DNA of 64,000 nucleotides, from positions 434,001-498,000 of the forward strand of contig QPGO01000045.1 of assembly GCA_008632985.1 (NCBI GenBank). Reading direction: 5' to 3'. This DNA comes from Psammoneis japonica (lineage: Eukaryota). The translations under genes were made by a program, and so were the position numbers. Shown piece after piece: positions 2,031 through 57,815 of this stretch (the first letter of the stretch is position 1; every line of letters begins with the position of its first letter). The notes below the pieces were generated by a model. The model searched no databases, was not told the DNA's origin, and saw only the letters and a list, made by a program, of their open reading frames with translations.

Positions 2031-2364
2031 AGCATTACTGTGGCAGCATGGTGTAACGTAACAGGCTTTGCAGACAGAATTCAAGGGCCAGCTTGAGACA
2101 GCTTCAACTTTTTTGTGAGCCTTTTGGACGATTCAACATCAACGACAGCTTTGATGTTATGGAAAATCAAAAATGAGCAGAGGTGCTGTCGACGTTGAAG
2201 GTGTTCTCCACATTCTCTTTGCAGATTTCTGTATCGGAAAGTCGTCTTACTTGCGCGAAACCTAGAATACAAGTCTAGTGACATAATCCTAATGTCAGAT
2301 TTACAATAATTATTCGTCTGCTGCTTCGAGTAGTGTTGTTACTGAGTCACCAGCTAGGAGTATT

Positions 2365-3600: not shown

Positions 3601-3726
3601 TGGTTGATGGGCTTTGCGATGGACGATCGCGAGACGAGAGACGACGAGCGGGCCAAATGATGGGTGGTGGTGTCACTGACAGACGCTGAGAACCTGTTTC
3701 GCGCGAATTTTCGCGAGAGATTTTCA

Positions 3727-3873
3727 CTCCCCATCGTTCGTGAAGCACTTGATGCAGCTGCTGCGCCTTGCCACGCTTGTCCACGGAGCACTGAGTGCCA
3801 TCTACGCCCTGGAGCACGCAGTGTCCCGTTTGTCCACAGGTGTAAAAAAAAATCAAAGCAAAACGATGGAGAG
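3727..3873 (+). mobile_element. ~150-bp MITE-like element (TA-eroded copy)
   Basis: Terminal inverted repeats ctccccatcgtt...aacgatggagag. Homologous to 30999-31148. Confidence 0.7.
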
Positions 3874-4002
3874 CATTGGCACAGCTCGAGGAACACGCAC
3901 CTGCAACGCCTGCCGCCATGGCGTTTTAGAGTTGCGGAGGCCCACACTGTGCGACCTGCAACTGTGACGAGATGACACACGACACGTTGCAGCATCTTTG
4001 TG

Positions 4003-9116: not shown

Positions 9117-9512
9117 GACGCGTTCCAGCTCCAGGTGGGGCCTCATGCCACTGCACTGTGACATCAACAGTTTTTGGATCACGTCGCATGTCGCGCACGC
9201 ACATTTCTGCGTGTTGCATTCTGCGAAATTGTTTTGCACTCCCTGTTTTGCGAAGCCAAAGGCTTTCTATTTTCAACATTCATGAGAATGAAAATGCACT
9301 GGGCACATTCTTTAATGTCTGAAGAATGTGCCCGGGCAAACTGTCAATGATGTGCTGCAAGCATGAAGGAGGAGATACGTTCGTAAAATTGCCTCTTTTT
9401 CTGTTGGCGATCATTTGCATTTTCATTGCAGCACAAATTTACTGCGGAGCTTGCACGCAGAATTCTGCGGGCCCAATGTCACACAGAGTCCCACCTGGGA
9501 CTGGAACCCGTC
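9117..9512 (-). mobile_element. ~390-bp MITE, divergent subfamily, TSD AGTC
   Basis: TIR gacgcgttccagctccaggtggg / cccacctgggactggaacccgtc, with agtc on both sides. Confidence 0.9.
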
Positions 9513-9868
9513 AGTCGTTCGAAGTTCAACCACCTCCTTCTCCGACAGCAGACCTTCAGCTTCCGCTTTGGCAGCCACAGACATGTCCTCCAATGATTTG
9601 CTGGCAGACTTGAAAATCAGAGCCGGTCCAGTTTTTGTCGTTTGAGCCAAGCCAAGAGCAAAATGCTGCCCACGTTGCTCAGCAACATTGGCGGCTCCCT
9701 CGCAGTTCTGCATTGCATTTCTTGACACCACCAATGGCAGGCCTTGGCTTTTTTGGTCTCTTTTCCGATCTGTCTGTCGCCACCACTGCTGCGTGTTTCC
9801 TTGACACATCCTTCTTTAGTGGCTTCTTCTTGGGGGTGGTGGTGGTGGCTCTCTCTGCAAGTTGTGCA

Positions 9869-10105
9869 ATCCTGTTGGGGCGTTTCGTCTCATCCGTTGG
9901 TGCAGCATCCCACTTGAGGGCCGTTCCGTCACATCCAGGAGCAGGGCTGGCCTCAAGCTTGAGGTGACTGTTGATTGCGTGCTTCTTGGAAATCCTGTTG
10001 GGGCATTTTGTCTCATCCGTTGGGGCAGCATCCCGCTTGAGGGCCGTTCCGTCATGTCCAGGAGCAGCCTCAAGCTTGAGGTGACTGTTGATTGCGTGCT
10101 TCTTG
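9869..10105. repeat. Tandem duplication, two units of ~120 bp
   Basis: atcctgttggggc...gattgcgtgcttctt occurs twice. Visible as repeated KKHAINSHLKLEA in ORF 9679-10185. Confidence 0.85.
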
Positions 10106-13100
10106 TTCAAGCACACATGCCTCGTGGGAGATTTGAACATTCTTGGTGTCGGCAGTGCAAGCAAGTTCATGCTGCGTTTCATCAAAGTCCGTCAACTCTC
10201 GACTGACACTGACAATCACACATGTTTGAGAACTCGATTTGCCCAACAAATGACTCACAAACATGTGAGTCAGCTTTGAATCACGGCATCAAAGAATGTC
10301 TCGCGAACAACTTTGGGCCGGATGATCGCTCCCCATGGAGGAAAGGCATCTCATGAGAGACATGAGTGAGACAAGTTGATGCTTGCCGCTTCTTTCTGCC
10401 AAAGTTCATCATCTGCGTCGGTCCTTTTCATCTTTCATTTCCAGCAAGATCAACAAAACGCACGTTGACTCATCTGCTCTTTCGGCTTTGAATGCGAGCC
10501 ACCTCCTCGCCCACACCATCTGCCACCCAAGGCCACAGCCTGATGGACTGCCACCGAAGTGAGTTCCAACTGACAGATGCAACAGAATGACTTGACCCTG
10601 TGTTGAGGTGTTTGATGCGGTGTGATGCTTCTGCTGAGAACATTTCCAAAGCGTCAAGAAGTCTCCAATGTCTTGGACCGGGTGCCGCACCAACTCCTCA
10701 ACAAAGGTGTCTCCTTGAGGTCTTTCACGCAGATGAAGAGAGTTTTCATGTTGAAACTCAAACTCTTTTGCTCCTCCCTTGATCTGGAAGTTGTCCGCAT
10801 TAGAAGAGGAGTCGGTGTCACAAAGAAGCTTGGCTTTGTTTGCATTGAAAGGAGGACAAGTGCAAACAGTCGTGGCAACCCCATCAGAGCTACGAGGCTT
10901 CAGAACCTCCACCGCATTGTCGCCGAAATCAAGTTGATTCGTGTTCCATCAATGCAATCGTAAAGAAAAGATGCAATCAAGATGATAAAAAGTCAGATGC
11001 TCTGAGAAAGACGCGCTTGACTGGGCGGACAGCCTTGCATCAGATGAACAAGGCACAGAAGGTGGGCCGCTGTGGATCATCTGGAACATGCTTTCACAGG
11101 CACTTTTTGACAACAGTCGACAAACCCGAACGTTCTATGAACAAATCGCAAATGATGCCAAAGGATTAAAATGGCTGAACTTCAAGAGGATCATTGCACC
11201 CGCGACGAAAGAGTGAAAGATGGCAGAAGAGCAAGTCGGAAAAGTCTCCTTGAGCTCGCATTTGCGGTTGCTGCACTTTGGAAAGCCACATCATTTCAGC
11301 CAGTCTCAAAGTTTGCTTTTCTTGCACGCAGCCGCACTCAGGCCACGGTTCTCCAGCAGAATGGCGATGGCGGCACCACCAACTCCTGTCACATGGCGAT
11401 GGTCAATTGTCATTTGGAAGGGCACTCAAGTCTTCTGCTCGCATTCATCATCACCACCATGCAATGACAGAAATGTCAAGGCGTCACTCTGCATCACACG
11501 GGGTGATCGTTTGTGGCAATTTCAACCGCGAGCTGCAGTCGTCAGCCTGTGACACTGCCCAAGGAACAAAGATTCTTGCACGTGTCCACTGCTTGGTTCT
11601 TGCACTGCCAGGTGTCATTCTTGCATGCAAAATCAGGCTCACAGATTGAGGCATTCCCAACTCATCCACAGAAAGAAAACAGCATGACTTCAGCCTGCCC
11701 AAGAGCTTCAGGTCAAGAAAATGAGCGGCAGCTGTGGCTGTTGCATGATGGCAAATGACAGGTGATGAGGAGGAGAACGACAGAAAAGAGCAAGATTGTG
11801 CTAAGATGAACATGAGAAGCATGCATTTTGAAGAGAGAGGGGACACCAGGACGGCGAGCACTGCGAATGGGCTGAAATCTTCTGCAATGCTCCAATGTTT
11901 GTGATTGTTCTGACAGAACCACTCTTTGGATCACAGGAATTTGAATCATGTTCTCTGACCAGTGTCATGATTGCATGCAAACAAATGAAAAAATCGAATC
12001 AAGGATTTGGCCAAGTTGAATTGACGAGGATTGCAGCAGCGAGAGACTCCTCGTTGCTTGCACGCACAAAGGCACCGCTGCAGTGCGTGCGACACCATCA
12101 CAATGTGAGAGCTGTTTCTGCTCAAATGTGTTGCCAGAACAAGGTGCGTTCTCTTCCACAGGTCTGTCAGCATTTGCTGGATTCTCTGCAAGAATTGAAG
12201 TGTGATTGCCAAACTGAACACCTTTGAGCAGAATCTTGGGTGTGAAGGAACCAATTCTTTGGGGGCCATTGGAGTGAGCGGTGGACTGGATTCTGCGATC
12301 TTGGTTGACCAACCTGTGCTGGTGGCGGCAGATGTTGTTGAAGCGGCTGAGCAGCCCTCCCGAAGTCAAGGCAACACATGCGGGATTTACGATTCCGACT
12401 GCAACAAGCTGCACTGAGATTTAAAAGGATGTTTGGAACATTTCAGAAGCAGGTGCAGCTCATGGTGGCAGGTGACCCGTCTTTCTGAAGAAAAGTTTCA
12501 ATCGTTTTTGTTCGCCAAGACTTTTCTGCAGTGAGCACATGCATTGTGGTGCGAGTTGGAATCCACCCAATGCCTGTTTGCAGAGCACCCTGCTGGACAA
12601 AGAATTCATCGACAAACCAGCCAAGTCAGAGGTGCGTCTGGGCACACTGTCAGCAGACCGTCATGTTGCACGCATCTAACCCTTTGGTGTCACTTTTGCA
12701 GAACGCCCTGTTGGACAAAGAGTTCTTGGAAAAACTGGCCAAGCAAGAGGGAAAAAAAAACTTGCCAAGTGAGAGGCACGTCTGTGTGCAACATCAGCAG
12801 ACATCTCTGACTCTGTCATTGCAGAGCACCCCACTGGATGCAGAGTTGCAAACAAAGAGAAAGAGTTCTGCAGCAGCAGGATTTGAGCCAGAAGTCAAAC
12901 ATTTGAATGGGAAGACATCCGCTCTCTCAAACGTTGCAACTCAACGGAGGAAGCTGTCACCACCTGGTGAAGACTCCTTGGATGTCACTCGGCAACTTCA
13001 ACATGAGGCAACCGACATCTTCATCAGACACTTGGAAAGATGGCAAGCGGCTTGTTTGGCACAATCTTGGACAATGGTGCTGTCATTGTCTGAGCTTGGG

Positions 13101-13515
13101 AGGTCGTTCTTGGCTCAACACCATTTCGTTTGGTGCTCCATTTCAGATTTTCGATTTGCACACCGAGACAAATCAAAATGCACACGTCGACTGCGAGTCA
13201 ATCAAGAAGCAGCCGGAGATGGAATGCAATGATTTGAAAGACAGCAGGTTCTGCCGCTCCTTGCCACAGGCCCTGCAGCTCAATTTGCAAGTTGATGCAA
13301 ACTGCACATTGCTCCTGGTTCAGACAAACTGCCACACCATGAAGTGTCCCCAAAAGAATTTACGCCACATCTTGATTTTTGAACAGATCTGGCAGTTCGT
13401 GGAGCACAGAGTGAAGCACGCCACAGCTTGAAGCATCTGTGTTCTGGCCAGTGCGTCCAAGTGCATGGGCCCACACATCGGGATGCACATTGTGCTGTTG
13501 ACGCAGCTCCTTGGC

Positions 13516-13907
13516 GACGCGTTCCAGCCCTAGGTGGGACTCGGTGTGACATTGGGCCCGTAGAATTCTACGTGCGAGCTCCGTAGTACGAGAATTTAAT
13601 TAATGGATATATTTATCTTCAACATCAAATAAACGGCCAAGTTTGTGGTGCAATTATGCCTCTCACCACTCGACATTTTTGCAAATTCGCCTGCCCTACG
13701 CGATTCTTAGGACATTATAGAATCGCGCTGTAACAAAAAATGTCAAAAGTTGTTGGACGGATCGCTCAATAAAAGTGTACCGTAAAATGACACAAAATGT
13801 CGAAAAAATCACGTAGAAATCTACGTGCGCGACATACGACGAGATACAAAAAACTGTCGATGTCACAGTTCAGCAGTGCGAGGTCCCACCTAGACCTGGA
13901 ACGCGTC
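13516..13907 (+). mobile_element. 392-bp MITE, young TA-rich copy, TSD TGGC
   Basis: TIR gacgcgttccagccctaggtgggac / gtcccacctagacctggaacgcgtc, with tggc at 13512-15 and 13908-11. Confidence 0.95.
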
Positions 13908-14400
13908 TGGCATGCCATTCTAGAAGCAGAAGAATCATTGCTTCGCTGCCTTCCTCCGCAGCACAGTCAAAGACCGTTGCACCATCCCCATCAGTCCAAC
14001 TGAAGTTGGCACCATGCTGCAAGAGAAGTCGTGCCCCCTCCACATTGTCATCCACAACGGCACACATCAAAGGAGTGAGGCCCGACTCCATTGCCGTGTC
14101 AACCGCCTCAGGATTGAACTTCAGAAGCTCATGCAAAATGTTCGCCCGGCCTTCTTTTGGAGCTGCCATGTGGAGAATCGTCACTGGAGGACCATCCGCT
14201 AATCTCATTTTGACCCCAATCTCAGCTCTGTGTTCCAGCAACAGTCAAGTCACTTTTTCGTTCCCACCAAACATGGAATGAAGCAATGGCGTTCCCCCAT
14301 CAGCTTCAAAGGCATCCACACATTGGGCGGTGCACAGCGACAAAGATGCAGCCAATCCTCAGCGGCGCACATTCCACTGCATTGAATTCAAAAGCTGCTT
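13908..14400 (-). pseudogene. Ankyrin-repeat protein pseudogene, interrupted by a MITE
   Basis: Ankyrin motifs TILHMAA, GLTPLMCAV...ARLLLQHGAN, GATVFDCAA, with Cys/His where Tyr is typical. Confidence 0.75.
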
Positions 14401-14783
14401 TGACATTTGCTCCAGCGTCTGCAAGAGCTTAGATGTCTTCCTCCTTTCCAAACGCAGCAACTGTGCACGAACAATCTGACGCCAACCCAGCAGTTCGGAG
14501 TGCTTGCCACCCCTTGACCGTTTGAAGCAATGCACGAACAGCCGCCAATTTTTTCTCCCGAGCTTGTTCAAGGTCATCACGTGATGACGCCATTGTCTGA
14601 AAACTGCTGTGATGGCGAGAGTTGAAAATTTGACTGTTGCGGCATTTTGAGTTTGTGCTGTCGGATGCTTGATCCGCGCGCACAATGCTTTTGAAAAAAG
14701 AACATCTGCCTGTCGAACCGACCACCACAACAATGAGACTGACAGAGTGACAGACAGCACACATGATGCACGTGCCATGAACC

Positions 14784-15722
14784 ATGAACCATGAAGCAGC
14801 CATGAGCCAGATGCGAGCGGCGCAACCACAATCACAACAACACTCAACAACGACCGAGAAGCATCTGAATGATGACATTGCTGCACAGTGCATTGATGAC
14901 AAGGAACTGCGCGCAGGAGATGTCAGATCTGTGACAGTGAACAACAAACAATGTGCCACCAATGAGGACGATGAAATGAACGTGGACGGCGGTTGTCATG
15001 TTCTTGGTGTTTCTGAGGAGCCTGTCAACAATGGCGTCAACATGGAAGGAGAGAATGCTGAATCAGAAGATGATGAACTCGATTGTGTGAAGGACCATGT
15101 TCAACGAGACGCCGCCATGATGCGAGTGGCTGTGCTCATTCACGCGTGCTTGGTGTTCTTTGTCGGCATTGTCGTTCTCACCATTGTCTTGGCAGTGCTT
15201 GCCATGTCTCAGTTTGGATTCTTGGTGTTTGTGTTTCTTGTGATTGTGGGAGGATTCTTTTTTGGTCTTGTCATGCTCATTGATGGAGCTCTAAAGGATG
15301 AAGCTCAACTCAAGCTGGTGCAAAGAAGAACACACCGGGGGAAGGACTTGGTGACAGCAGTGGCATTGAACGAACTGCAAAACCTCAAAGCTGAGTGGAG
15401 TGAGCACTTTCTGTCAACCAATGGCGTGTCTGGCTGCAACTCATGCGCAGAGGATGATGACCATGACGACCATCCAATGGCCTCAACATCAAAAGCAAAA
15501 ATGAAGAGAAAAGGATGCACTTTTGTTGCACTGAAAAGACACAGGCGTAAAAAAGATGAAAACAAACAGCCACTGGACACTGAGATTCTACTGCCAGATG
15601 GTGAACTCGTGTGGGCTCAGAGAAGTTCGAAAACAGCCAAGCAGCTGCAGCGGCGGTTGGTCGTTGCGCTGCGCTTTGAGAGGTCTAAAAGCACAACACA
15701 GTCAAAGAAGCCATCATGGTAG
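14784..15722 (+). pseudogene. TA-eroded membrane protein gene
   Basis: 312-aa ORF with an acidic N-terminus, two long hydrophobic segments and no Tyr. Confidence 0.5.
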
Positions 15723-15759
15723 AAACTGATGAGCTCATGATGATGACGTCTCTCGAAAC

Positions 15760-16370
15760 CGCGTGCCCACTTGGACCTCTTGTGAGGAAATCATTGGAAG
15801 TGCCCCGTGCTGTTTTGATGATCCCCGTTCGCATGTTCACGAGGAAAATGCCTTGGTGTGGTTCATTGACAGGTTTTCTTCATTGAGCTTGTCTGACACA
15901 ATGGCTGCATTGTTGAACAACCAAGTGACCCAGAAGATTCGATTGAACTCATGGACGAACTCCTCAGTGACGATGCGTTCACAGAGGCCTTGAACAAGGG
16001 GTTGACGGATGAAGGGATTTTGGTGATGCAACTGCCAGCAGCAGCAAAAGCTCCCGATTGTGCAGATGCAGCAGAGTCCAACACGCAAAGCCACAACACG
16101 GCCAGCGTTGCCAGTCAATTAATGTGTGCTGAACTGAGAGCATTCACATTTATGAAGAAGAAATGTCTTCATTGAAAGAGTGGATCCTTCCACCTGAACT
16201 CACTTTTACGCCAGGCGAAGAGCCGCCAGACAGACCAGAACCCCTTGCGCACAGTCACAACATGGCCAGTGTTGCCAGTCAATTTGAAGATGGTGGATTT
16301 GAGAGCACACCTGTCTACGAAGAGGCAACGTTGGATCCTTCCACCTGAATTCATTTTTGCACTGGGCAAC
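15760..16370 (+). pseudogene. Spermidine/spermine-synthase-like (aminopropyltransferase) fragment with a ~165-bp internal duplication
   Basis: GSAPCCFDDPR...WFIDRF, DDAFTEALNKGLTDEGILVMQL and GFESTPVYEE resemble diatom aminopropyltransferase domains. Frameshifted. Confidence 0.5.
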
Positions 16371-16984
16371 GTCTGGTGTCATTTCACGCATGATGGCCAT
16401 GCTCCCCTGTCAGGACAAAGCCACACTGCTGCCAACGAAACCCCCGTCGAAGGCCAAGGATTGGATCAACTTTTTCACAGTGTGTCGGCCAATGTTCAAG
16501 GCGTTTCCACCAATGTCACCACCAACATGGCTCGGAATCATGTCAATTCAGTCGATGGTTGGGACGACGGCACAAGTGCACGCACCATGAGCTCCGACTT
16601 GTTGTTGGGATTGGGGCGGGCTTTTTTGGAATGCTTTCCAGCAACTGCCCATTGCATCGCATCAGCTTGGACAGCATGCGGTGTTGCACTTGTTTGTGCG
16701 GGGATGTCAGCGTGAAATCAGATGAGACGACGAGAGTGTGGATTGTGATGGATCTCTGTTGCGGGCAAATCAGAGTCTTTGAGTTCCAAACCTCAACAAG
16801 AACGACATTGACGACAACACGATCGGCACGCTTTGCTGTGACTTGTGGCACAACACGTCAAAGCTCACGGTTTGAGCGACGGACAGTTTGAGTCTGAAAG
16901 CACTGGATTGCACTGGATTTGAGTGAGATCGAGTTGGAAGACTCAGACATGATGCCTCTTTCCAATGTTCTTTCTGTGAACCGC

Positions 16985-17376
16985 GACGCGTTCCAGCCCC
17001 AGATGGGACTCCGTGTGACATTGGGCCCGCAGAATTCTACGTGCGAGCTCCGTAGCACGAGAATTTAATCAATGGATGTTTTCATCTTCAACATCAAATA
17101 AACGGCCAAGTTTGTGGTGCAATTGTGCCTCTTGCCACTCGACGTTTTTGCAAATGCACCTGCCCTGCGCGATTCTTTAAGACAGTGTAGAATCGCGCTG
17201 TGACAAAAAATGTCAAAAGTTTTTTGGACGGATCGCTCAATGAGTGCACCGTAAAATGACACAAAATGTCAAAAAAATCACGTAGAATTCTACGTGCGCG
17301 ACATACGACGAGATTCAAAAAACTGTCGATGTCACAGTTCAGCAGTGCGAGGTCCCACCTGGACCTGGAACGCGTC
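16985..17376 (+). mobile_element. 392-bp MITE, partly TA-eroded, TSD CCGC
   Basis: Colinear with 13516-13907, with ccgc at 16981-84 and 17377-80. Confidence 0.95.
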
Positions 17377-17892
17377 CCGCACCCTGCGAACGCTGCACCT
17401 CCACGCTGTAAAAATTGTTCAAATGTGTGACATCTGGCTGGTGTGTCGACAATGATGCTGAAACTGTGGACCACTGTCATTTGCCCCCGATTTCCCTGCT
17501 CATTTGGAAAAAAAAGATTGATCCGGGTTCCTCACCCAGAAACCCACAATCCTTTTTGACTTGGACTTCATCAACGAACGTGCTTCGATCAATGCCACAT
17601 TGCCTGTCATGTGTGTGGGCACAATTGACCGCACTGCATGATCGCAGCAACAGAAAGCGCGGTAAAGGGTGGCGCCATAGTTGCAAAATGCCGATGGTCG
17701 ACGCATTGTCACGAGTCACGAGTTGTTTTGCTTGCGAGCAGCGCGAGTGGCGCGTCGGAGGGAGTTTCTGTAGAATCCTACGTATCCTGGTACAAAGCGC
17801 GATGAAGCTCCTTTCAAATTTTTAGTACCAGGTGGACACGTAGTTTTCTACGCTGGTACCATGTCGCGCGCGCTCGGTCATGCATACCCAAC

Positions 17893-17981
17893 AAGGAACC
17901 CGGATCCAACCTTTTTTTTTTATACTAGGTAAGGAACCCGGATCCAACCTTTTTTCAAAAAAGGTTGGATCCGGGTTCCTT
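17893..17981. repeat. Perfect 51-bp palindrome (17931-17981) plus a third copy of the arm (17893-17917)
   Basis: aaggaacccggatccaacctttttt-c-aaaaaaggttggatccgggttcctt. Confidence 0.9.
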
Positions 17982-18151
17982 TTCCTTTTCCAATGACGTC
18001 ATGACACAGGAGAAGGACGGACGGTATGGTCTGGGAATCTGGAACGAAAATCGATCATCAAAATCACGCTATTCAATTCATACAACCATCGCTTCTTTTG
18101 CAACCACTAAAACCATCAACCATCTCCTATTTCTCCCTCTATATAAGCAAC

Positions 18152-20618
18152 ATGCCGTTAACAGAGTCGTCTAGTGAAAAGAAGAAGAAAAAGAAAAAGT
18201 CTTCAAAGCGATCCAACAAGTCTGAGAAACCTCGTCATGATGATCCCGAGCCACAGATCCAAGATCACGAAGTAAATGTTGCGGTTCATCGTGTTCGCTG
18301 TTTGAAGTACAAGCCTACCCCGATTGTAGCAATGGCATCTGCACGTGTTGTTGGAAGAAGACGTGGTCGCATTGAGTCGGAGCAACGGGCACGTGGAATT
18401 AAAAAGTCCGTCTCAGAAATGGCGCACGCTGTCAACCATTCACGGTCAGTCGAATCGTCCAATCAACGCCATGGTCTGGACTCGTTGTTCGAACAATAAC
18501 AACAACACTCTTGTTGGTGCTTCGTCAGATGGTACCTTGTCTGTGTTGGATTGGGAGCAGGGTGTGTCCCGTAGCGTTGTTTCCTCTGGGGGAGGTGGTG
18601 TGCAGTGCTTGGCGAGTCTCTGCAATCACGCCGAAAACAACGACGAGTATAAGACATGCTGTAATCTTTTATTGTCGGTTGCATGGAGACGCATCCCTGG
18701 CAAGAACGACAGTAGTACTGTCTTGTATGCGGCAGTTGCGGCTGGAATCATTCGGCGTTATGATTCTTCATCTTTGGCTGAAAGCAGTATGAAATGGTCG
18801 TCTACGTTACGCATGACGGTGGAATGCTTGGGAACACCCACTCCAACCCTGACGTGGAGTCTTTTGGCCTTGCACGGTGGCGACACCGTCGTGTCGGATG
18901 ATTCCTTGGGTCATGGTCAGTTTTGGAATGGCAAGACAGGAACGCTCATTTCGAATTGTAATCAGAATGATTCTCATGCAGACGTATTGTGCTTGGCGAC
19001 CACGGTGGATTCAAGAGTTGTGTGTATCGAGAAACAACTCCACAAGAATAATTGGATCTTGACTCATGCGCAACGACCGCATACACATGATGTCAAGGCC
19101 ATGGCTGTAGCTCATGATGGCGGTGGCAATTCTCAAGAGTACTTGTGCAGTGATGGTATCGATACCAAGTTGCGTGCCTACAACACAAAGCGAAAAGAGT
19201 TTGCAAAGGATCGTCCCAAAATCATATATCCGTGGCCAAGCGTGTCGCCCATTACGGTGGCGCCGCAAGGCCGAATCTTGGCCTTGATAAGACCTGGATT
19301 CTTCGTCGTCCCTCGTAGCCGATCAAGATGCCGGGGAAAGCTTGTCCACGTTAAACATCAAGAGTACAACAAATCTCATTTGTGCTGCCATGGATTCGGA
19401 CGCGACTTTAATTGGCTGTCTCAGATGCACTGCATGGACTGCTCATATTTCAGCTGGGCATCAACCTACATGACAAAGCAGTGAATTCTAGTCAAGTTCC
19501 GCTGCCGTCGTCCATGAGATTCCCTTGTGTTTCTGTCACTTTCTGTGGTCCGGGTCGACTAGCTTGCGCTACAATTCATGGTAAGATTGTTATCGTGGAA
19601 CTCGGAAAAGACGACAGTGACAAGGTCGTCGTAGAGAACCACCATACTGTCTCTACTGACGACGTGGTAGATCAGAGAATGGGCTTGTTCTCAATCCATA
19701 ATTTCAGCGCCTCGCATGATGGACAATGGCTTGTTGCATGCCAAAATGGTATGAATCAACAAGGACAGATTCAAGTCTTTTCGAAAAATGACGATGGCTC
19801 CTATCAGCATTTATGGACTGTACCGTAACTCGATGTCCCATTTACAATCGCAGATTTTTTGCTTGGAGAGAAGGTACAGTTGATTGTTTCGTGTATCAAC
19901 TGCGGGTTTTATATCTTTGACTTGAAGGAAAAGTCTCTATCAAAATGGAGCGAGAGGGCTGGCTTTCCAATTACGCCGGTTTTGCCTCAGGAACTAGCGA
20001 GTCGTAATGATTACCCAGTTCGATTTGCCTTCAACAAGGCAACTCCCAACAAACTTGCAATGTTGCGTTATGGATTCACCTTGCCATGACAAAGCAAGAA
20101 CGTTATTGCGTCATGCCGGTAAAGGAACTCTTTTTCGTGGCGTGCAGGCTTGTCACCCTTGCAAGATTGACCTGCCCTTATTTTTTTTCGCCCATTTGTG
20201 CAACACGAAAGAATGCACCCGTGGTATAGTAGGGGGCTACAATCCAAAACGACCATGTATCTCGTGAAACGGATATCACTTACACGGTTTCGCTCTTTGT
20301 TTCCTTTATTTTGCAGGGATCGTTTGGCGCCCTTTGTTCTGTTGACTTGGACAAGGCGATACCAAAGCACTGTCGCATTTTCCCGGAAAGGCACGTGCGA
20401 GGGGTCAAACGTCGTAAACCAAACGAACGAAACGACGATTCCCAAAACAAAACAGTTTCTGACCAAGAGACGAACAACTTGACCATTTGCTTACGTTACA
20501 ATAGCGTTCTTCACATGAACTTTCTCGGAGCAAATGAGTTGCTCGTTGTGGAACAACCGTGGCTAAGCGTCGTGGCGAGCTTTCCCGATGCCATGGAAAA
20601 AAACTTTACGGAAGTTGA
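18152..20618 (+). CDS. UTP4: U3 snoRNA-associated protein 4 (UTP4/cirhin, WD40), with frameshifts and a stop
   Basis: VHRVRCLKYKPTPI, DSLGHGQFWNG, RPHTHDVKAM, GIDTKL and C-terminal LLVVEQPW...LYGS*. TAA at 19826-28. Probable intron near 20.06-20.32 kb. Confidence 0.8.
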
Positions 20619-21311
20619 CTTCGTCATGGTTAGTTCTTTGGACGACTACAACATTGAATACGCAAGAACGCAGCAGTGCCCAAACGATAGTGCTCCCACG
20701 TTTGACGGTACTTCCAAATTTCAATCGATCCTTGCAACATCAAAAGCAACCTTCAGTTTGAGCTGCTTGTGTGCCATCATCGGCACGAGCGGCATAGATG
20801 CAGGGGGCACTGCAAGCCACAAAATGAAAAGCACAAACGGTCAGAGTTGCTCACCTACTCGTATTTGCTATCTCGCACTTGCATAGCTATCATAGTTGCT
20901 TGGTTGATACAGACGAACGTGCTGGGCGCTAAAAGGTGAGAAGTAGACAGTGCTGGATCATGCTTTGGCGAACGCAAGACGCAGCGGTATCAATCATTGA
21001 TTGCTCTACGCTTTGATACCTCCTATTCATATATCCCTTGCAACAATGAGCATTCGCCGATTATCTGAACTGGTTTCGTTCATTTTGGTGACTTGACTAG
21101 TAAATAAATGTGGCGACATCACGTGCAGTACGTGCGACTCTCACTCACTTGTTCTGCGTTTCTCCTTTTCTTGGATCCACGCCATTGATCACAAGAGTCA
21201 AGGTGGTAAAGTCTCAGAAAATATGCGAAAAACTGCGGCATGTGCAATGTACCGGTAGCATTATTGTGTTACTAAAGCCACCCTCAAAATTAACATGACA
21301 AATCCTTCTCT

Positions 21312-22179
21312 CTAGAGAAGCTCTTGGTCCTCGAGTATGCCCATTACCTCTTCCGCTAGTTTTTCACCACGCGTAAACTGCAATTCTCTTAGCTCGTCTC
21401 GAACGGACTCGATTGCAATCTTTTGGTACTCGTCTTGGATTAAATTTGCCATTTCAGTTGCAAACGAAGACATTAACGTTCTGTCCAGAAATGTAAAGGG
21501 AGGAGCAAGCAACTGAGCCTCTGTCATGTCTACAAAAATGACACGCCCAGACTCCTTGTCAATGAGAGCCTGGACATCAATAGTAACTGTATTGGCTGCA
21601 AGCATTTGTACCAGGGTTCGAGCAATTTGTTGGATTGCAGAGCGCTGCGCCTCGCGAGTGCTAACTTGCGAGATGCTGGCTACAGCGTTCGGCAGGTACG
21701 GTTATACCAGAATCATCATTCTACCACTGTCAGACTTGCTATCCTTAGCTAAAGAACATTCATACTGTCCCAAACATCGTTCTACTGAACCAACGACACC
21801 CTCTAATCGTCGCAAAGTTTCGCACTCGCGAATCACAGACTTGGTGCTGCCGGCCCAGCTGACTTTGAGCAGCAAATCGCTCTCTCGAAAGGCACAGACG
21901 GCTCCACCAGAGCCGGCTCTAATTAATTGCGGTTGCACAAGTGATGCATGCTCGCCTTTGTTCGTTTTCAATGCAATCGGTTCGTCCTCTGGAAGAGTCA
22001 CGTCGCCGTTCACAAGGTGCCATTCTTGCGCGTTGGATCCATCAGGTGTTGCGGCAAGAATTGCGGCAACAGCAAGCGATCCGAGAAAGCCACGTGCTTT
22101 TTTGAACAAATGAGCTGCTCTGTTGCTCTCAAGGAAGAGGAGGCACCCAACTACTGCAGCACCACCAGATGACTTTCAT
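21312..22179 (-). CDS. Protein-kinase-like hypothetical protein with an internal stop
   Basis: AGSGGAV...LLKVSW...RECETL...VTIDVQ...VDMTEA. ORFs 21702-22109 and 21312-21605 are in frame across TAA at 21702-04. The 5' end is frameshifted. Confidence 0.5.
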
Positions 22180-22999
22180 GTGTAATCGTTGCGGTCAAAG
22201 ACGCTGCTTGATCTTGATGGTTGAAATGACAAGTGATTTTGAATGCGGAGGATGTGTGCGTCATTCGGCTACATCAAGTTGAAGTGACTGACACTTTCTG
22301 ATCTTTGGACAAACACCACACTTGCATGACCCCTTGCCTGACGCAGAGGTCTCGTTGGTGGCACTCTCGGTTGGCCCACACATTGTTGGTGTGTGTTGAT
22401 TGTGTGGAGGAGAGTCAACAAAAAATGGCAAGAGCATCATCTTCATTTTGTTGAGATTGGAGCTAGCAGCAACAGTCAAAGCCACAAACTTGCCAGAGGA
22501 GGAGAAAGCACGGCCCAGGGTGCTGGGAAAAGCAGCGGGTCAAGGGGACCCAGGCAGAAAAAAACTTTTTGACAGCCGGGGAGCTTCCGTGCAGTTTTTG
22601 GCACTGGCCAGATTGGCATGCATGGCCTGAGCTTGCAGCAGTGTGCAGCTCAGTTGTCAAAACAGACAAAAAACAATGAGCCCCCTCTGTGTGTGTTGGC
22701 TCTGTGCCCCCCCCCCCCCCCCCCCGGAAAGAAACAGCCAAATGCGCTGGTTCACAGACTGTTTTTTGGCCAAACTCTCTGCTCAAAAGTGTTCTTCATG
22801 GGCCGCAGCAGCCGGCTGAAAAGACAGCCCTCATGTTGTCTTTTTGGAACAGCTCGCACTCTTGTCAGCTGAGCTGCTTTGCCTTGGAGAGCATGGGCTC
22901 ATTGCATCACACCTTTTTGCAACAGCAGGGTGCACCAAGTGGGCAAGCGCAGGAGGAGCAGGCTGCGCAGTGTGTGCTGCCAGCAGCAACCAAAGGTCG

Positions 23000-37748: not shown

Positions 37749-39999
<2,251 letters not shown>

Positions 40000-47419: not shown

Positions 47420-48915
47420 CAGCTGTCATGCGCCTGGTGTCTAACACCTCGGAGCACTGAAATGCTGCCACCTCGATTGCTGTTCTTGCAATGAGTGCCT
47501 TGGCATGACAGGCGGTGAGTCCAACAACAATGCCACGCGCACTCTCCTCCCAAGTGAGCCAGCAAAGGCGGGGGGACAAACCGCACCCCGCCAGCGTCAT
47601 CAACGGCAGACGCCAAATCTGCAATGTCTTTGGCGCCCTCACCGAACTGCAAGTTGTCGCGGAGCCATTGGACAAGCAATCCTGCCATGGCAACAGCACC
47701 TTCAAGAGCGTAAACTGATGGCTCTCCCTTGACTTGGTGAAAAGGAGTCGCCATGAGTCCACATTTTGAAATTTGAGGTTTCTCCTGCGCACCCACATTC
47801 ATTGTGAGAAAGGCTCCAGTTCCAAATGCAGCCTTGGCTTCTCCCACTTGCAAGCAAGCTTGACCAAACATTGCAGTGTGTTGGTCACCAAAGAATTGCT
47901 CCAATGGTTGCAACTCTGGACACGACACCAATGGAGTGTCATCAAGTTGCAAAGCAGAGTCCTCGCCACATTTGTCACAACTGCCACGTGCTTTTCTCCA
48001 CCCGCAAGCTTGTGCAAGAGCCAAGAATCAATTGTCCCAAAGCATCCGTCACGTGCCTTGCCCTCCAAGCCGTGCACATTGTCAAACATCCACCGCAATT
48101 TGGTCGCCGAAAAGTGGGCACAATTTGGAAGCCCCGTTTTAGAAAGCAAGGCATCTTTTCCTCCTGGGCTCTTGCATTGGTCAGCAACAAGTCCCGTGGT
48201 TCGTCCACAATTCCAAACAAAAGCAGACACAGTGGCTCTCCTGAATCCTTGTCCCACACGATGGTCATTTCCCTCTGAATGGTGGCTCCAATTGACACGG
48301 CTGAATTGCTCGTGATGTTTGTTTTAGCGAGTGCATCCGAAATGCACCCCATGCAGAATTGTCCCAGGTCTCGGAGGCATCATGTTTGACCCATCCGGAC
48401 TGAGGACAATGCTGTTTGTGCTCGCTCTGAGAAGAGGAGACGGGCTTGCCAAACCTGTCATGCAGAACAAAGTAAGTCGATGAGGCATCCTGATGTGTTC
48501 CAGGTCCAGGTTGGACCTCGTGCCACTGAACTGTGACATCGACAGTTTTTTGAGTCACGTCACATGTCGCGCACGTAGATTTCCATGTGATTTTTGCGAC
48601 ATTTTGCATCGTTTCACGGTGCACTTGTTGAGCGATCCATCCAACAACTTTTGACATTTTTTTTTGCAGCGCAATTCTACAATGTCTTAAGAATCGCGTG
48701 GGGCAGGCGCGTTTGCAAAAACGTCGAGTGGCACAAGGCACAATTGCACCACAAACTTGGCAGTTTGTTTGATGTTAAAGACAAACACATCCATTGATTA
48801 AATTCTCACACTGCGGAGCTCGCACGTGGAATTCCACGGGCCCAATGTCACACAGAGTCCCACCTGGGGCTGGAACGCATCTCCTGATCAAGGGATCTGA
48901 CACATTGCTCTGTTG
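47420..48915 (-). pseudogene. glpK: Glycerol kinase pseudogene, interrupted by a MITE
   Basis: SLDQ|ASST, EHKQHCPQSGWV, QREMTIVWDK, HFSATKLRW, FGTIDSWLL, GDQH, FGTGAF, YALEG, VQWLRDNL. Confidence 0.9.
48492..48881 (-). mobile_element. ~390-bp MITE, eroded, TSD TCCT
   Basis: Colinear with the reverse complement of 13516-13907, with tcct on both sides. Confidence 0.92.
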
Positions 48916-51360: not shown

Positions 51361-51422
51361 CAGCCTCATGCGTTGCATGGCGAGTCAGTTCCTTGGACCC
51401 CGAAATTCACGTCTCTGCAGCA

Positions 51423-51770
51423 GACGCGTTCCAGGTCCAGGTGGGACCTCGCACTGCTGAACTGTGACATCGACAGTTTTTTGAATTGCGTTGCATGTCG
51501 CGCACATAGATTTCTACATGATTTTTTGATGTTTTGTGTCATTTTGCAGCACACTTAATTGAGCGATCCATCCAACAACTTTTGACATTTTTTGTTGCAC
51601 AGCGCGATTCTGTGATGTCTCAAGAATCGTGCAGGGCAGACAAACTTGGCCGTTCATTTGATGTTGAAGACAAACACATCCATGGATTAAATTCTTGTGC
51701 TGCGGAGCTCGCACACAGAATTCTGTGGGCCCAATGTCACACGGAGTCCCACCTGGGGCTGGAGTGCATC
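51423..51770 (-). mobile_element. MITE, eroded and internally deleted, TSD AGCA
   Basis: Same family as 13516-13907, with agca at 51419-22 and 51771-74. Confidence 0.92.
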
Positions 51771-52726: not shown

Positions 52727-54239
52727 AACACTGTTTTCGAAGACTCCTTTTGCAAGATTAAAGAGCTGACAATGAATGCACGCCCTTTGATGCATTCAAG
52801 CTCATTCATTGCTCGAAAGGCCGGTGACAAGAGCTTGAGTCTCTTTTTTCTTTCACCCTGTCTGAAAAGGCAAAGGGGCAGATGAAGTCCTTGTTCCTCA
52901 TCTCTTGCATGCAAGGGAAGCTCAAGTCAAGAATTCAACCTTTGCTGCAGAGGCAGAAAGCAGGGCAATGCTGGCACAAACCTGGCCACGAATTGGTCTG
53001 TCTGCTGGGAGCAAGGGGTTTGACGACTGTTGGTGCCTGGTCCACAATCAGCAGCACTTAATCAGGGTCGAAACTGTCAGCACTTGCCATGACACTCTTG
53101 CACAAGAGGCTTCTCAAAAACTCCAATTGACAAGAAATCGCACACACCAAGACCCACGACACCAAACTGACCACATTCCATTCAAAGACATTTTTGCATT
53201 TGTCGATCTTTCCAGACTTCCTCCCTCCAGCACAGTTCAATCACAGCATCCCATGCACCTTTGAGTGCGTCCTTGTCCTCAGGATCAGGCAACGATCCCT
53301 CCAAAGCGGCCAACACAACACGGTCTCCAGGAGAACGATCTGGACCCATTGCCGTGGCCACAATTCTGAAACCCTCTCTCTGACAGACTTCAGATTTTCC
53401 CTCTGTGATTGTCAGTCCAAACCAATGTTGGAGTTTCCTCTTGTTCATCCTCATTGAAAAAAGCAGGATGTGGAAACTTGAGAAAGCCCTCGAGAATGAA
53501 AAAAGACTTGATTGACATCCCCACAGCATCCGACTCATTGTCCAATTGTTTTTGCATGAATCTCCATCGATTGAAAGTGCTGTCTAAACTCAGTGTTGGA
53601 CCACGTTAGATGCCATGTGGAGTCATCCAAACATTGGGGAAATGTGAAATGCTTTTCCAAAGCTTGTTGATGGGGAACCAATGACCCAAAACCCCGCCGA
53701 CTCATGATGATGAAAATGACCAAAAACCGCCGACCGCAGAGTCAAATGCTCACAAAGCACCACACGTCACACTCAACAAAGTGATGGCATTTTGTTGTTG
53801 GCGCTGTCTGCTTTCAAATCAATTGAGAAACACAAGGAATTGTGCAAAAGGACTGCTTGCTCACACACTGAATGCTGGATCAGCCATTGAATTTCTGTCT
53901 CTAAGATGATGGCCTCAGTCCTGTCTGGAGTGAGGGCTTGTCTCATGCAAGCACCCTGTGCATTGCCTGGACATCTCATTCTGGATGAGCACTTCATTTG
54001 TTGGATGGCTCATCAAGAGCATTGTGTGATTTCAAGGCATGCAAAAGAGCTTTGTGGGCTGTTGTCCGTGGTGTGAAAATGACGCACAGCATGCATGTTC
54101 AGAGTTGGGAGAAGGGGGCAGCAGCTTGCAAACATTTCTCTGTGGCTCATCAGCTGCCACAACAAAGGACAAGCAACTCACCACCCATGATGTGCCCAAG
54201 CCTTTGAAATTGCACCTGGGCATCATGTGAAAAGACACA

Positions 54240-57200
54240 AGTGACTTTTTCTGCAGTTTCACACTTTGCCTGCAGAGGGTTTTTTTCTGCCCACCCAAGT
54301 GCCACTCTGCCACCACAACTGCAGTCAAGCAAGCCACCCAAACTGTGCTCAGCCATTTGAGGTTGTTTCTTGGAACTTGAAGAGTGCACTGAAAAGCTGA
54401 GAGTGCAAACGTTTGGCAAAAATGACTTTTTCTGTGGTTTGACACTTTGCCTGCACGGGTTTCTGCCCACCCTGAGGCTGTTCTGCCACCACAACGGCAG
54501 TCAAAAAAGCCACCCAAACTGTGCTCAACCCTTTGAGGCTGTTTTTTGCAATGAAGAGTGTGGTCAAATGCTGAGAGTTCAAGCCATTGGGCAGAAGTGA
54601 CTTTTCATGCCACTGACACTTTTCCACCACACAGCAGCTGCTTTTCTGCCTGCTGCCTGCATGGGCAGTGTGATCACCTGCATTTTGTGGGAAAAAACCC
54701 GCTGAACAATTTTGTGGATGGATGTGTTTTAATGATCACATCTCTCCCTCAAACACCATCATCCAAACAAACCCTCAGTGTCTTGCTCCCCTTTCCACAC
54801 ATGAGGAATTTGGCTCTGCTGTTTGTTTTCTCCGACAACGCGATTTGAGAAAAACCATCAAACACGTGTGCATTCACGACAAATTTAATGACTGTTTTCC
54901 CTTCAAGCATGTTTCTTGGGACACAAGGAGTGTGCTCAGAAGCCAAGACTGCCAGCACATTGGCAAAAGTGCCTTTTGCTTTCTGTGGCTTGACACTTTG
55001 CCTCTCTGTGGGTTTCTGCCTGCCCAGAGGCTGCTCTGCCACAGGGCTGGCAGCAGTCAAGCAGGTCACCAAAGCTGTGCTCAATCATTTGACAATGTTT
55101 CTTGGGACATGAACAGTGTGCCAAGTGGCCACAAGAGGGCAGAAAATTTGGCAAAAGTGATTTTTTCTGCCCGCCGACACTTTGACACCAGACTTTTCTT
55201 TGGCTGCAGCTGACACTTTGCTCTGCCACCACAACTGCAGTTAATTGAGCCCCACAACTTGTGCTGAACCCCTTGAGGTTGTTTTTTGGGACATGGAAAG
55301 TGTGCTCAGAAACCAAGATTGCAAGCTCATTGGCAGTGGTGACTTTTCCTGAGGTTTGACACTTTGCCTGCAGGGGCTTCTGCCCACCCAGAGGCTGCTC
55401 TGCTGTCACATGGCTGCAACCAAGCAAGCCACCCAAATGGTGCTCAACCATTTGACAAAATGCTTTTGGACAGGACAAGTGTGCTCAAAAGATGAGAGTG
55501 CATGCAATTTGGCAGAAGTGACTTTTGACGCGTTCCAGGTCTAGGTGGGACCTCGTGCCACTGAACTGTGACATCGACAGTTTTTTGAATCGCGTCGTAT
55601 GTCGCGCACGTACATTTCTACGTGATTTTGGCGAAATTTTGTATGATTTTATAGTGCAATTATCAGGCTGTCCATTGAACAACTTTTCACATTTTTTTCT
55701 TCTACGCCATTCTCGAGTGTCTTAAGAATGGCGCAGGGCAGGCGCATCATCCAAAACTTCGAGTACGAACAGGGACAGATGTGCTACAAACGTGGCCGTT
55801 TTTTTTATGTCGAAGACAAATGTGTGCATCAACCAGAGTACGAACCACAGAGCTCGCACGTAGAATTCTACGGGGCAAATGTCACAAAAAGTCCCACCTG
55901 GGACTGGAACCCGTCTTTTTCTGCCGACTGACACATTCCCATCAAACACTGCTTTTCTGCCTTCAGCCCAGATTTCACACTGCCACACCACAGCTGCAGT
56001 TGAGCAAGCCACCCAAGCTGTGCCCAACCTTTCATGAATGTTTCTTGGGACACAAGAAGTGTGCTCAGAAGCCAGTGCTGCAAACACATTGGCAGAAGTG
56101 GCTTTGTCTGTGGATTGACACTTTGCCTCCAGTTGCATCTGCTCACCCACACCAGAGGCTGCTCTGCCACCACAGCTGCAGCCAAGCAAACCACCCAGAC
56201 TCTGCTCAACCCTTTGAGCTCATTTCTTTGGACATGGAAAGGGCACTCAGATGCTGAGAGCACAAACAATTTGGCGGAAGTGACTTTGTTTCTGCCAACT
56301 GACACTTTCCCCCCTGCTTCTGGGCTGCGCTTGCTGCCCAGAACTTGCTTTGCACTGCCACAACTGCAGCCAAGCAAGCCACCCACACTGTGCTTGTCCC
56401 TTTGAGGTTGTTTTTTAGAACATGAAGAGTGTGCTCAGAAGCTGAGAGCACAAACAATTTGGCAGCTTCCTTGCTGCTTTTCCACCAGGTTTCTCTGCCT
56501 GCTGCCTGGATTTGCTCTGACACCACAGCTGCACTCAAGCAAGCTGTCCAAGCTGTGCCAAGCCATTTGAGGGTGTTTGGTCAAGATGTGATTTTTCTGC
56601 CAACTCTGACACTTTTCCACCGTGCTTCTTTGCCTGCTGCTGCCACCCAGATTTGGCTCTGCCGCCACAGCTGCAATGTCAAACAAGCTGCCCAAGCTGA
56701 GGCAAGCCAATTGAAGATGTTTCTTGGGACATGAAAAGTGTGCTCAGAATCCAAAACTGCAGCTGCATTGGCTGAAATGATTTTTCTGCTGTTTGACACT
56801 TTGCCTCCAACAGCAGCTTTCGCCCAACTGGAGCCTGATCTTCTGCCACAGCTGCACTCAAGCATGCCATCCAAATGGCACTCAGCCAAACAATCAGGCA
56901 CAAGTGACTTTTTCTGTGGTTTGACACACTTTGCCTGTGCTTTGCAGCAGTTTCTGCTGCCCACCCAGGTGCCTGCTCTGCTGCCATGACAGCTGCAGTC
57001 AAACAAGCCACCCAAACTGTGCTCAGCCATTTGACAACATTTCTGGGGACATGAAGAGCGTGCTCTTTTTCCACCAGGCTTGTCCTCCACCTCTTGCTGC
57101 TGACCATGTTTTGCACTCTGCTGCTGCCACACAACTGCAGTCAACAAAGCTGCCAAAACTGTGCTTGCCCCTTTGAGGTTGTTTCTTGGGATGTGAAAAG

Positions 57201-57320
57201 CATGCTCAGAAGCTGAGGGAGCAAACAATTTGGCAGAATTGACATTTTGCGTGGTTTGATGCTTTGCCTGCAGAGAGATGGGTTTCTGCCAAACCAGAGG
57301 CTGCTCTGCCACCACTGCTG
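54240..57320. repeat. Degenerate tandem array of ~180-bp units, about 14 copies
   Basis: Recurring gtgactttttc...gacactttgcc...caactgcagtcaagcaagccacccaaactgtgctca...tttcttgggaca...gtgctcagaa. Confidence 0.85.
55527..55915 (-). mobile_element. 389-bp MITE, young TA-rich copy, TSD TTTT, inserted in the satellite
   Basis: gacgcgttccaggtctaggtgggac / gtcccacctgggactggaacccgtc. Confidence 0.93.
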
Positions 57321-57815
57321 CAGAGTTGGGCAAGCAACCCAAGCCCATTTCGATGGAACAAGAAGGGCTCATGTTGGCGCATGATGGCAGAGAGTGTGAG
57401 CTCATCATCCCATCTTGTCCTGTCATTTGACACTCCATTTCCTTGAGATTTTTTGAGGGATCTGCACTGCATTCCGCACAATTCGGCCCACTCTTGTTCC
57501 CGACAAACGACGACTCCTCTGCTCGCACTTGGTCTGCTCGTTGAATGACTGTGTGCCGCATTCTGTCTTGCGTGGTCCCGTCCGTCTGACAAAATTTGAA
57601 ACAACATGGGAACATGAAGACGCATTTGAAATGACCGTTATTCTGCATGGATAAACACAGGAAGTCGTGTCACAATCTGTAAGAAAACGTTTCTAACACT
57701 TAACCATGTCTATACATTGAAAATAAATTCAACGTTTTCAATATAGCATACATTTGCCGATGCGTACATTCAAAAATTGGCAGTTCAATTGAAAAAAACT
57801 ACGTTCTAAACATTT

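Follow-up and report, generated by a model that had tools for sequence, protein, structure and literature searches.

We analyzed a 64,000-nt stretch of the Psammoneis japonica genome (contig QPGO01000045.1, positions 434,001 to 498,000; hereafter the window), in which six copies of an abundant miniature inverted-repeat transposable element (MITE) differ in how many TA dinucleotides (TpA) they retain. The TA content of the window was bimodal in 500-bp bins. Nine TA-free blocks with a total length of 34,935 nt contained 104 TAs, and their observed/expected (o/e) ratios were 0.05 for TA, 0.43 for CG, 1.67 for CA and 1.68 for TG, whereas four TA-normal blocks (26,554 nt) had o/e ratios of 0.58 for TA, 0.99 for CG and 1.20 for CA/TG (Table 1). 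AA, AT, TT and CA were not depleted in the TA-free blocks. The borders between the two kinds of domain were sharp to tens of bp; the segment 56417–57638 contained no TA, and the next 250 bp contained 23. The largest TA-normal block (29600–47450) carried genes for a P-type ATPase, a subunit of the CCT chaperonin and an Fe-hydrogenase/CysJ-type fusion protein, and the TA-normal blocks also held a glycosyltransferase gene and a gene found to be spliced in sequencing run X2. Because TA persisted in the two introns of the spliced gene at o/e ratios of 0.57–0.62 and in the intergenic spacers of the largest block at 0.65–0.70, TA is kept in the gene blocks without coding constraint.

The MITE copies were located by self-BLAST of the window, which recovered five full copies and one partial copy. 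All six were bounded by perfect 4-bp target-site duplications (TSDs) of varied sequence, and they were 348–396 bp long with terminal inverted repeats (TIRs) that matched at 20–23 of 27 nt. The copy at 51423 carried an internal deletion of 44 bp, and in the element at 9117 only the termini were homologous to the MITE, the interior being unrelated. The summed depth of run X1 was approximately 118,000 over the element and approximately 100 in its flanks, indicating that the family comprises thousands of copies. With its TIRs, TSDs, small size, non-coding sequence and many copies, the element is a MITE. The copy at 55527 had 28 private substitutions and variants in common with the copy at 9117; it belongs to a second subfamily, and its divergence therefore does not measure its age. 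The copy at 16985 lay where a TA-free block meets a TA-normal gene block, and the copy at 48492 adjoined the 5' end of a glycerol-kinase pseudogene. When metagenome contigs were scanned for exact matches to a conserved 21-nt motif of the MITE, there were 0 hits, and a BLAST search of the MITE against 77 retrieved loci found no match.

Table 1. Coordinates of the blocks, mobile elements, repeats and genic features described in the window
Feature	Position	Strand	Remarks
TA-free blocks	1-2000, 3750-13505, 13918-16975, 22100-29400, 47500-48486		by TA o/e
TA-free blocks, continued	48892-51412, 51781-55516, 55926-57500, 60000-64000		by TA o/e
TA-normal blocks	2000-3700, 17400-22000, 29600-47450 (largest), 57550-59950		by TA o/e
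MITE copy, least eroded	13516..13907	+	25 TA, 29 CG; TSD TGGC; 22/23 ancestral TA sites
MITE copy, intermediate	16985..17376	+	10 TA; TSD CCGC; 10/23 TA and 25/27 CG sites
MITE copy, eroded	48492..48881	-	TSD AGGA; 4/23 TA and 18/27 CG sites
MITE copy, most eroded of the full copies	51423..51770	-	TSD TGCT; 3/23 TA and 14/24 CG sites
MITE copy, second subfamily	55527..55915	-	within satellite; TSD AAAA; 16 TA; 10/23 TA and 21/27 CG sites
MITE-derived element, second subfamily, partial	9117..9512	-	TSD GACT; 1/10 TA and 12/16 CG sites
Repeat	3721..3873	+	partner 30993-31148 in TA-normal DNA, with TA there and CA/TG here
Inverted repeat pair	4003-4764 / 5379-6147		TA-free arms; 97 of 762 aligned nt differ
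Degenerate satellite, period ~182 bp	54233..57323		no TA, CG-poor; hosts the MITE copy at 55527; period by BLAST
Glycerol-kinase (FGGY) pseudogene, intron-less	47462..48486	-	contiguous homology across 5 reading frames, at least 4 frameshifts
Ankyrin-repeat open reading frame	13870..14244	-	Ank E=1.3e-12; directly right of the MITE copy at 13516, in TA-free DNA
Two GT..AG introns	~20628-20885, 20933-21192	+	joints in run X2; TA o/e 0.57, 0.62

A first-pass annotation of this DNA had compared the copies at 13516–13907 and 16985–17376 by eye, and we re-examined this pair as a computed pairwise alignment. The alignment of the two sequences (392 bp each) had 394 columns, of which 4 were gap columns and 27 held substitutions. 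At 12 of the 27 substitutions, TA in the 13516 copy stood opposite CA or TG in the 16985 copy, and the reverse was never observed (binomial p=0.0005). Substitutions affected 14 of the 50 positions within TA and 13 of the 340 positions elsewhere (odds ratio 9.8, p=3e-7), and the number of TAs was 25 in one copy and 10 in the other. One extra A>G beside a gap raises the 12 changes to approximately 13, which is the number of one-way differences reported earlier, and all seven of the examples quoted at that time (such as ccgtag>ccgcag) were present in the alignment. The accompanying statement that most CpGs were kept was also correct, since 26 of 27 ancestral CG sites were intact in the 13516 copy and 25 of 27 in the 16985 copy.

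The direction of change was shown to be from TA to CA or TG. A site was accepted as ancestrally TA if at least two copies had TA or if both CA and TG were found beside TA. In the six-copy alignment, 18 columns showed all three states (TA, CA and TG) in different copies. Each of these states is one step from TA and other ancestors need double changes; therefore, TA is ancestral at these columns. A route from CG through TG or CA to TA is excluded, because the TA-rich copies were also CpG-rich (as in the 13516 copy, with its 26 of 27 CG sites). The polarity assumed in the first-pass annotation, with TA ancestral and CA/TG derived, was thus upheld by the three-state columns and by the CpG content of the TA-rich copies. 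Other repeats in the window were examined as well. The repeat at 3721–3873 had CA or TG at at least six sites (counted by eye) where its partner in TA-normal DNA had TA. Between the arms of the inverted repeat, CA faced TG at 19 sites, compared with 11 adjacent double differences belonging to any other type; these 19 sites could also stem from a CG ancestor. Over 11110–11480, where the window has 2 TAs, a diverged counterpart contig that occurs in both X1 and X2 had 9.

Two features of the MITE termini were recorded alongside these changes. In columns 389–393 of alignment A2 (window 13878–13884 and equivalents), a short palindrome read GCAGTGC in three copies and GTGGCAC in three; its two dinucleotides were always resolved oppositely, and the palindrome was thereby preserved. 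These variants could be a subfamily polymorphism or the paired outcome of two TA losses. In TIR orientation (columns 26 and 406 of A2), all nine TA-less copy-ends read CCAGG, the 13516 copy read CTAGG, and CTGGG was found in none. CCAGG is either the state of the family or the product of a CTAG site with a fixed direction of change.

The proportion of ancestral TA sites retained was 96%, 43%, 43%, 17%, 13% and 10% in the copies at 13516, 16985, 55527, 48492, 51423 and 9117, respectively. These values agree with the earlier observation that the copies at 48492 and 51423 had lost more TA, and the flanks were nearly TA-free, much as described, with 0–5 TAs per 500 bp versus approximately 30 expected. 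The same account had grouped the copies at 13516 and 55527 as TA-rich, which holds for the former but not for the latter, in which 16 TAs are present but only 10 of the 23 shared sites are kept, an intermediate state. In the two most eroded copies, TA was lost at 39 of 46 sites, and other private changes were found at 7 of 494 positions (2x247). Expressed as a historical ratio, TA loss exceeded other substitutions roughly hundredfold per site. The results support the earlier claim that TA loss acts after insertion, each copy having lost its sites independently. In the four subfamily-A copies, TA and CpG retention (0.96/0.96, 0.43/0.93, 0.17/0.67 and 0.13/0.58) followed the same rank order, and CpG decay may share regional exposure with TA loss. 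Several X1 contigs bridged the empty site of the 13516 copy (13512>13910) without the MITE, while exact-match contigs spanned both of its junctions. The presence of the empty site among the X1 contigs indicates that the 13516 insertion is recent. Age rather than local exposure is therefore likely to explain the state of the 13516 copy, and is unproven as the explanation for the others; because the 16985 copy lies at the edge of a protected gene block, its position could explain its state as well as its age could.

The TAs that survived in the TA-free blocks differed in context from those in the normal blocks (chi2 114, p=2e-25). RTAY (R, purine; Y, pyrimidine) accounted for 2 of 104 survivors versus 322 of 1049 TAs in normal blocks (density ratio free/normal 0.005), mixed contexts for 42 of 104 versus 559 of 1049 (0.057), and YTAR for 60 of 104 versus 168 of 1049 (0.27). 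ATAT and GTAC were absent from the survivors and TTAA was enriched fivefold. RTAY contains two 5'-TAY-3' targets, a mixed context contains one and YTAR none; thus, with RTAY lost first and YTAR last, the preferred target looks to be the A in 5'-TAY-3'. TAG and TAA were the most resistant contexts, and the largest gain of TG in TA-free DNA was in NTGC. The outcomes in the MITE copies fitted the TAY rule in 22 of 33 events, which were not fully independent (YTAY->TG 9:4, RTAR->CA 13:7; one-sided p=0.04). The kept and lost sites of the two intermediate MITE copies were interspersed, with no tracts. Counts of CA versus TG were over-dispersed, with variance ratios of 1.9–3.0 in the TA-free blocks and 1.4–1.7 in the gene blocks, which is only a hint of strand-coordinated tracts. 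CA-versus-TG imbalances of approximately 2:1, alternating in sign over 0.5–1 kb, were observed at 51781–52280, 13918–14417, 14918–15417 and 60500–60999. They may be traces of strand-specific conversion tracts or of former coding strands.

We then considered whether the TA-free DNA is real. At an even depth of approximately 35, the X1 contigs were identical to the window throughout 4,411 nt of TA-free flank, three MITE junctions included. Had a symmetric modification at TA been misread, one strand would have yielded CA reads and the other TG reads, and contigs would have been interrupted at every such site. Metagenome contigs with hydrogenases 52–60% identical to that of the window allowed a comparison with other genomes. 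Among the related contigs L001–L009, TA-poor DNA was found in three: L005 had a TA o/e of 0.12 at 3500–5500 (CG 0.32, CA/TG 1.77/1.90), L008 had a TA o/e of 0.09 at 10500–11743 (CG 0.35), and L004 had a shorter TA-poor block of the same kind. All three TA-poor blocks adjoined TA-normal genic DNA, and their survivors showed the same context shift (RTAY 3 of 54 versus 403 of 1444, YTAR 25 of 54 versus 287 of 1444, p=1e-6). The first-pass annotation had argued against a uniform sequencing artefact, and both the exact X1 matches and these independent assemblies bear this out. The remaining contigs (L001–L003, L006, L007 and L009) were genic throughout and had no TA-poor block. The blocks low in TA and CG, high in CA and TG, and with the YTAR bias of survivors lay at 3400–5700 in L005, 10250–11743 in L008 and 7250–8250 in L004. 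In wider protein comparisons, which favour a diatom-like stramenopile as the source, the hydrogenase exon of the window was 75–76% identical to proteins of Nitzschia inconspicua/Bacillariaceae, 67% to Amphora and 82–84% to metagenome proteins, and the search with the ATPase exon gave generic HAD matches only.

Read depth also differed along the window. Over 9000–22500, exact-match TA-free contigs of runs X1 and X2 had a depth of approximately 35, diverged counterparts 53–65 and genic contigs 130–158. The diverged counterparts were approximately 13–15% different from the window and lacked the 13516 MITE. This looks like several haplotypes or homeologues that are alike in genes and strongly diverged in TA-free DNA. 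Run X2 showed two GT..AG joints of 258 and 260 nt within 20627–21193 and high depth only over the gene at 18–21 kb; it is listed as "DNA?" and behaves like an RNA library. Its cover of the TA-free parts was thin or came from diverged contigs, and was not used.

The TA-free DNA contained several kinds of sequence, the targets seen being MITEs, a host-type pseudogene, an inverted repeat and a satellite. At seven positions where its homologues have Tyr, the glycerol-kinase pseudogene read H, H, H, C, F, T and Y. Its homology ended at approximately 47450, right at the border to TA-normal DNA. Tandem Repeats Finder called no repeat in the satellite at 54233–57323. In a domain scan of 87 open reading frames (ORFs) of at least 120 aa from the TA-free blocks, the ankyrin ORF and the glycerol-kinase pieces were the only clear passes. 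An ORF at 11484–11930 (minus strand) weakly matched the Bd3614-like deaminase N-terminal domain; with E=0.0028 and 18.4 bits versus a cut-off of 25, this match is probably due to chance. A search for TIRs and TSDs around the TA-normal block 2000–3700 revealed no transposon ends, and Rfam and tRNA scans of the whole window gave no match. Some TA-free blocks (23000–28500, 54000–57500 and 1–2000) were nearly CpG-free, with 1–12 CpGs per 500 bp, and others had 15–25; because CpG density differs among the blocks in this way, the decay of TA and that of CpG are not uniformly coupled.

These findings probably reflect a regional process that converts TpA to CpA or TpG, purges silent DNA, spares gene blocks and erodes MITEs after their insertion. 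Such a regionally targeted process would turn TA into CA or TG through transitions of A:T to G:C at TpA, whichever strand is hit. Expressed gene blocks would be spared along with their introns and spacers, and the silent DNA between genes, consisting of pseudogenes, the inverted repeat, the satellite and old transposon copies, would be purged of TA. The abundant 390-bp MITE would land in these domains with approximately 25 TAs, and each copy would lose them independently; the six copies of the window would then be snapshots with 96% to 10% of their TA sites left. We infer that the agent may be a DNA adenine deaminase of the TadA/ADAT type, which would be directed to silent chromatin that is also CpG-depleted here. 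The natural RNA target of TadA/ADAT enzymes is U-A-C in the anticodon loop, and the TAY preference and NTGC as the largest product class fit an enzyme of this type.

Several observations weigh against this interpretation. The first-pass annotation had described the MITE copies as a time series of a gradual and ongoing process and had proposed plotting TA retention against non-TA, non-CG divergence. Among the four subfamily-A copies, the private substitutions of this kind numbered 2, 5, 3 and 4 over 247 columns, which did not track TA loss and were too few to rank the copies by age. The agreement between TA and CpG ranks involves four copies and would arise by chance with a probability of 1/24; a time axis across the six copies is thus plausible but weakly supported. 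In addition, sites count as ancestrally TA on the strength of copies that still have TA, which favours the 13516 copy, and at the left TIR site (column 26) TA was present only in the 13516 copy and CA in the other five, so that TA may be derived at this site. The tetranucleotide flux analysis behind the NTGC result assumes that TA-free and gene blocks started out alike in composition. The strand coordination within copies for which the earlier account had suggested a test was not significant (39 runs versus 45.2 +/- 4.2, P=0.09). Run X1, the library type of which is not on record, is possibly the window's own assembly data, and its exact matches are therefore not fully independent. Among the 87 ORFs scanned from the TA-free blocks, there was no viral or transposase domain, and no sign of a viral or foreign origin of the targets as in B. 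natans was found, although heavy decay may hide the origins of this DNA. Finally, the deaminase is read from the signature left in the sequence and, as TA is palindromic, deamination of A would not be separable on that basis from a T-directed route.

Other explanations were weighed against the same evidence. The copies may have been exposed to the same process but differ by location (the state of the chromatin or how near a protected gene block is) rather than by age. The half-eroded 16985 copy lies exactly on the border of TA-free and TA-normal DNA, all copies have intact TSDs and only 2–5 private background changes, which leaves their ages inseparable, and the process in Bigelowiella natans was active in some lines only (Mettrop et al., bioRxiv 10.64898/2026.01.13.699255, 2026). 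However, the least eroded copy (13516) lies deep in a TA-free block, where exposure should peak, the empty-site contigs mark it as recent, and TA and CpG retention rank together in four copies, and we consider location alone to be unlikely as the explanation, if still a serious one. We think it rather improbable that the mutated base is T, with a thymine modification at TpA (of the 5-hydroxymethyluracil [5hmU] or base-J type) that mispairs or is repaired to C. Every result fits T>C in R-T-A no less than A>G in T-A-Y, and 5hmU in dinoflagellates is enriched at TpA, but the T-A-C preference matches the known U-A-C target of TadA/ADAT. The authors of the B. natans study favour deamination (bioRxiv 10.64898/2026.01.13.699255).

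The remaining alternatives carry much less weight. If TA were derived, a C>T process at CpA/TpG resembling repeat-induced point mutation (RIP) would create TA in repeats, and the TA-rich MITEs would be the most mutated. RIP is the textbook repeat-directed system and yields an excess of TpA, and the single TA at column 26 would be in line with it; nevertheless, the 18 columns with CA, TG and TA need a TA ancestor, the TA-rich copies retain 96% of their CpGs, flanks of unique and pseudogene sequence lack TA instead of having normal levels, and the Tyr codons of the pseudogene read His or Cys. These findings already contradict a RIP-like origin, to which we give almost no credence. An artefact of sequencing, base-calling or assembly, or a modified base at TA that is misread by the polymerase, is very unlikely. 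It would gain from the uncertain provenance of run X1, but the k-mer contigs, evenly covered at a depth of approximately 35, agreed with the window over 4,411 nt of TA-free DNA without a single difference, TA-free DNA shares contigs with TA-rich MITEs and genes, such blocks with this context bias recur in relatives assembled independently from metagenomes, and the glycerol-kinase pseudogene is frameshifted as well. It is just as hard to attribute the pattern to selection against TA (e.g., to avoid TA-targeting transposons or nucleases) instead of mutational bias. TA is under-represented in most genomes and has an o/e of 0.58 even in the gene blocks here; however, selection on individual neutral sites in dead MITEs, satellite and pseudogenes could not produce a TA turnover of approximately 85% versus approximately 1.5% elsewhere, and the outcomes are solely transitions to CA/TG. 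RNA hyperediting of the ADAR type, in which A-to-I edited transcripts of repeats would be copied back into DNA, is also highly improbable. The elements are DNA transposons with TSDs that were eroded in place, satellite and pseudogene DNA was purged equally, AA and CA were not depleted, and the 3' neighbour preferred here is Y rather than the G favoured by ADARs. Double-stranded RNA (dsRNA) could form from MITEs and the inverted repeat, and U on the 5' side of the edited A is an ADAR preference that is discussed in the B. natans preprint (bioRxiv 10.64898/2026.01.13.699255). When the pattern was compared with ADAR-type dsRNA hyperediting, the 5' T agreed, but the 3' Y and the intact state of the other A contexts did not.

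As a broader proposal, which we put forward tentatively and regard as possible rather than probable, a DNA adenine deaminase with 5'-TAY-3' specificity may act on silent chromatin as an adenine-based counterpart of RIP that is common to distant lineages of the stramenopile-alveolate-rhizarian (SAR) group. The lineages concerned would be the rhizarian Bigelowiella on the one hand and diatom-like stramenopiles on the other, the latter represented by the window and several uncultured relatives. If so, nearly all TA would be removed from non-genic DNA, haplotypes or homeologues would diverge fast, and each insertion would be a molecular clock. The TAY flanking-base rule narrows the candidate enzymes, and the very abundant MITE family may serve as a natural dated series from which rates and site preferences could be read. 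There are also practical consequences for annotation. Gene finders and repeat annotators misread TA-free DNA, in which one stop codon is left and there are no Tyr codons, and alleles in TA-free domains may resemble paralogues.

Several known systems share features with the process described here. RIP in ascomycetes likewise degrades transposons and duplicated DNA by dinucleotide-specific transitions and produces sharp compositional domains; however, RIP changes C>T at CpA and creates TpA, whereas here A>G at TpA destroys it. Fungal RIP itself was rejected as a candidate, because an excess of TpA and a deficit of CpA/TpG would be expected and the signature of the window is the opposite. APOBEC and ADAR footprints in animal retroelements resemble the pattern in that they are deaminase-type, context-specific hypermutation in copies of mobile elements. 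These marks are made before integration, on replication intermediates or RNA, whereas in the window they arose in place after integration, in DNA transposons as well as non-mobile DNA, and at TAY. The CpG decay caused by deamination of 5-methylcytosine is similar in that a palindromic dinucleotide becomes TG/CA in silent DNA, and CG is itself depleted here (o/e 0.43 versus 0.99). CpG decay hits CG and not TA, and in the MITE copies it was approximately 3–11 times slower than TA loss, as calculated from log retention ratios. Very-short-patch repair in enterobacteria changes CTAGG to CCAGG and depletes CTAG. Most MITE copies have CCAGG in both TIRs in place of the CTAGG found in the 13516 copy, which is reminiscent of this repair, but the latter is bacterial and confined to one pentanucleotide, whereas all TA is lost here and CTAG is among the slowest contexts. 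We know of no natural enzyme that defends a genome by editing adenine in its DNA.

The closest parallel is found in B. natans. A full-text literature search returned the preprint on this alga as the only report of TpA-restricted hypermutation. In that study, 231 of 302 nuclear mutations in mutation-accumulation lines fell in two integrated viral regions; all but one of the 231 mutations in these silent viral inserts were A>G/T>C, all on TpA, at rates approximately 1000 times the background and in only some of the lines (Mettrop et al., bioRxiv 10.64898/2026.01.13.699255, 2026). The genome contained 124 clusters of windows poor in TpA and rich in CpA+TpG, and an ADAT2-like DNA deaminase was proposed by the authors; CpG, flanking bases, MITEs and strand tracts are not mentioned in the preprint text (bioRxiv 10.64898/2026.01.13.699255). 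The two systems agree in changing TpA only, to TpG/CpA, in discrete regions beside normal DNA that show TpA depletion with an excess of CpA/TpG, and in hitting silent DNA, with the logic of a genome defence. They differ in several respects. The host here is diatom-like and not a chlorarachniophyte, and the purge is near total (o/e 0.05 versus a Rho of 0.45 reported in that text for the region derived from a nucleocytoplasmic large DNA virus), covering more than half of the window. In place of the viral inserts described there, the targets are MITEs, pseudogenes, an inverted repeat and a satellite, and no viral domain was found in the 87-ORF scan. The purged DNA here is also CpG-depleted, and the preprint text makes no mention of the RTAY>YTAR rule. 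The process in B. natans was seen in real time, as described there, whereas here it is read from the sequence of one assembly. What is new here is the TAY rule, together with the targeting of ordinary transposons, pseudogenes and satellite DNA, the depletion of CpG alongside TA, and the occurrence of the pattern in several uncultured relatives. The window is thus a second, far more extreme instance of TpA-specific regional hypermutation.

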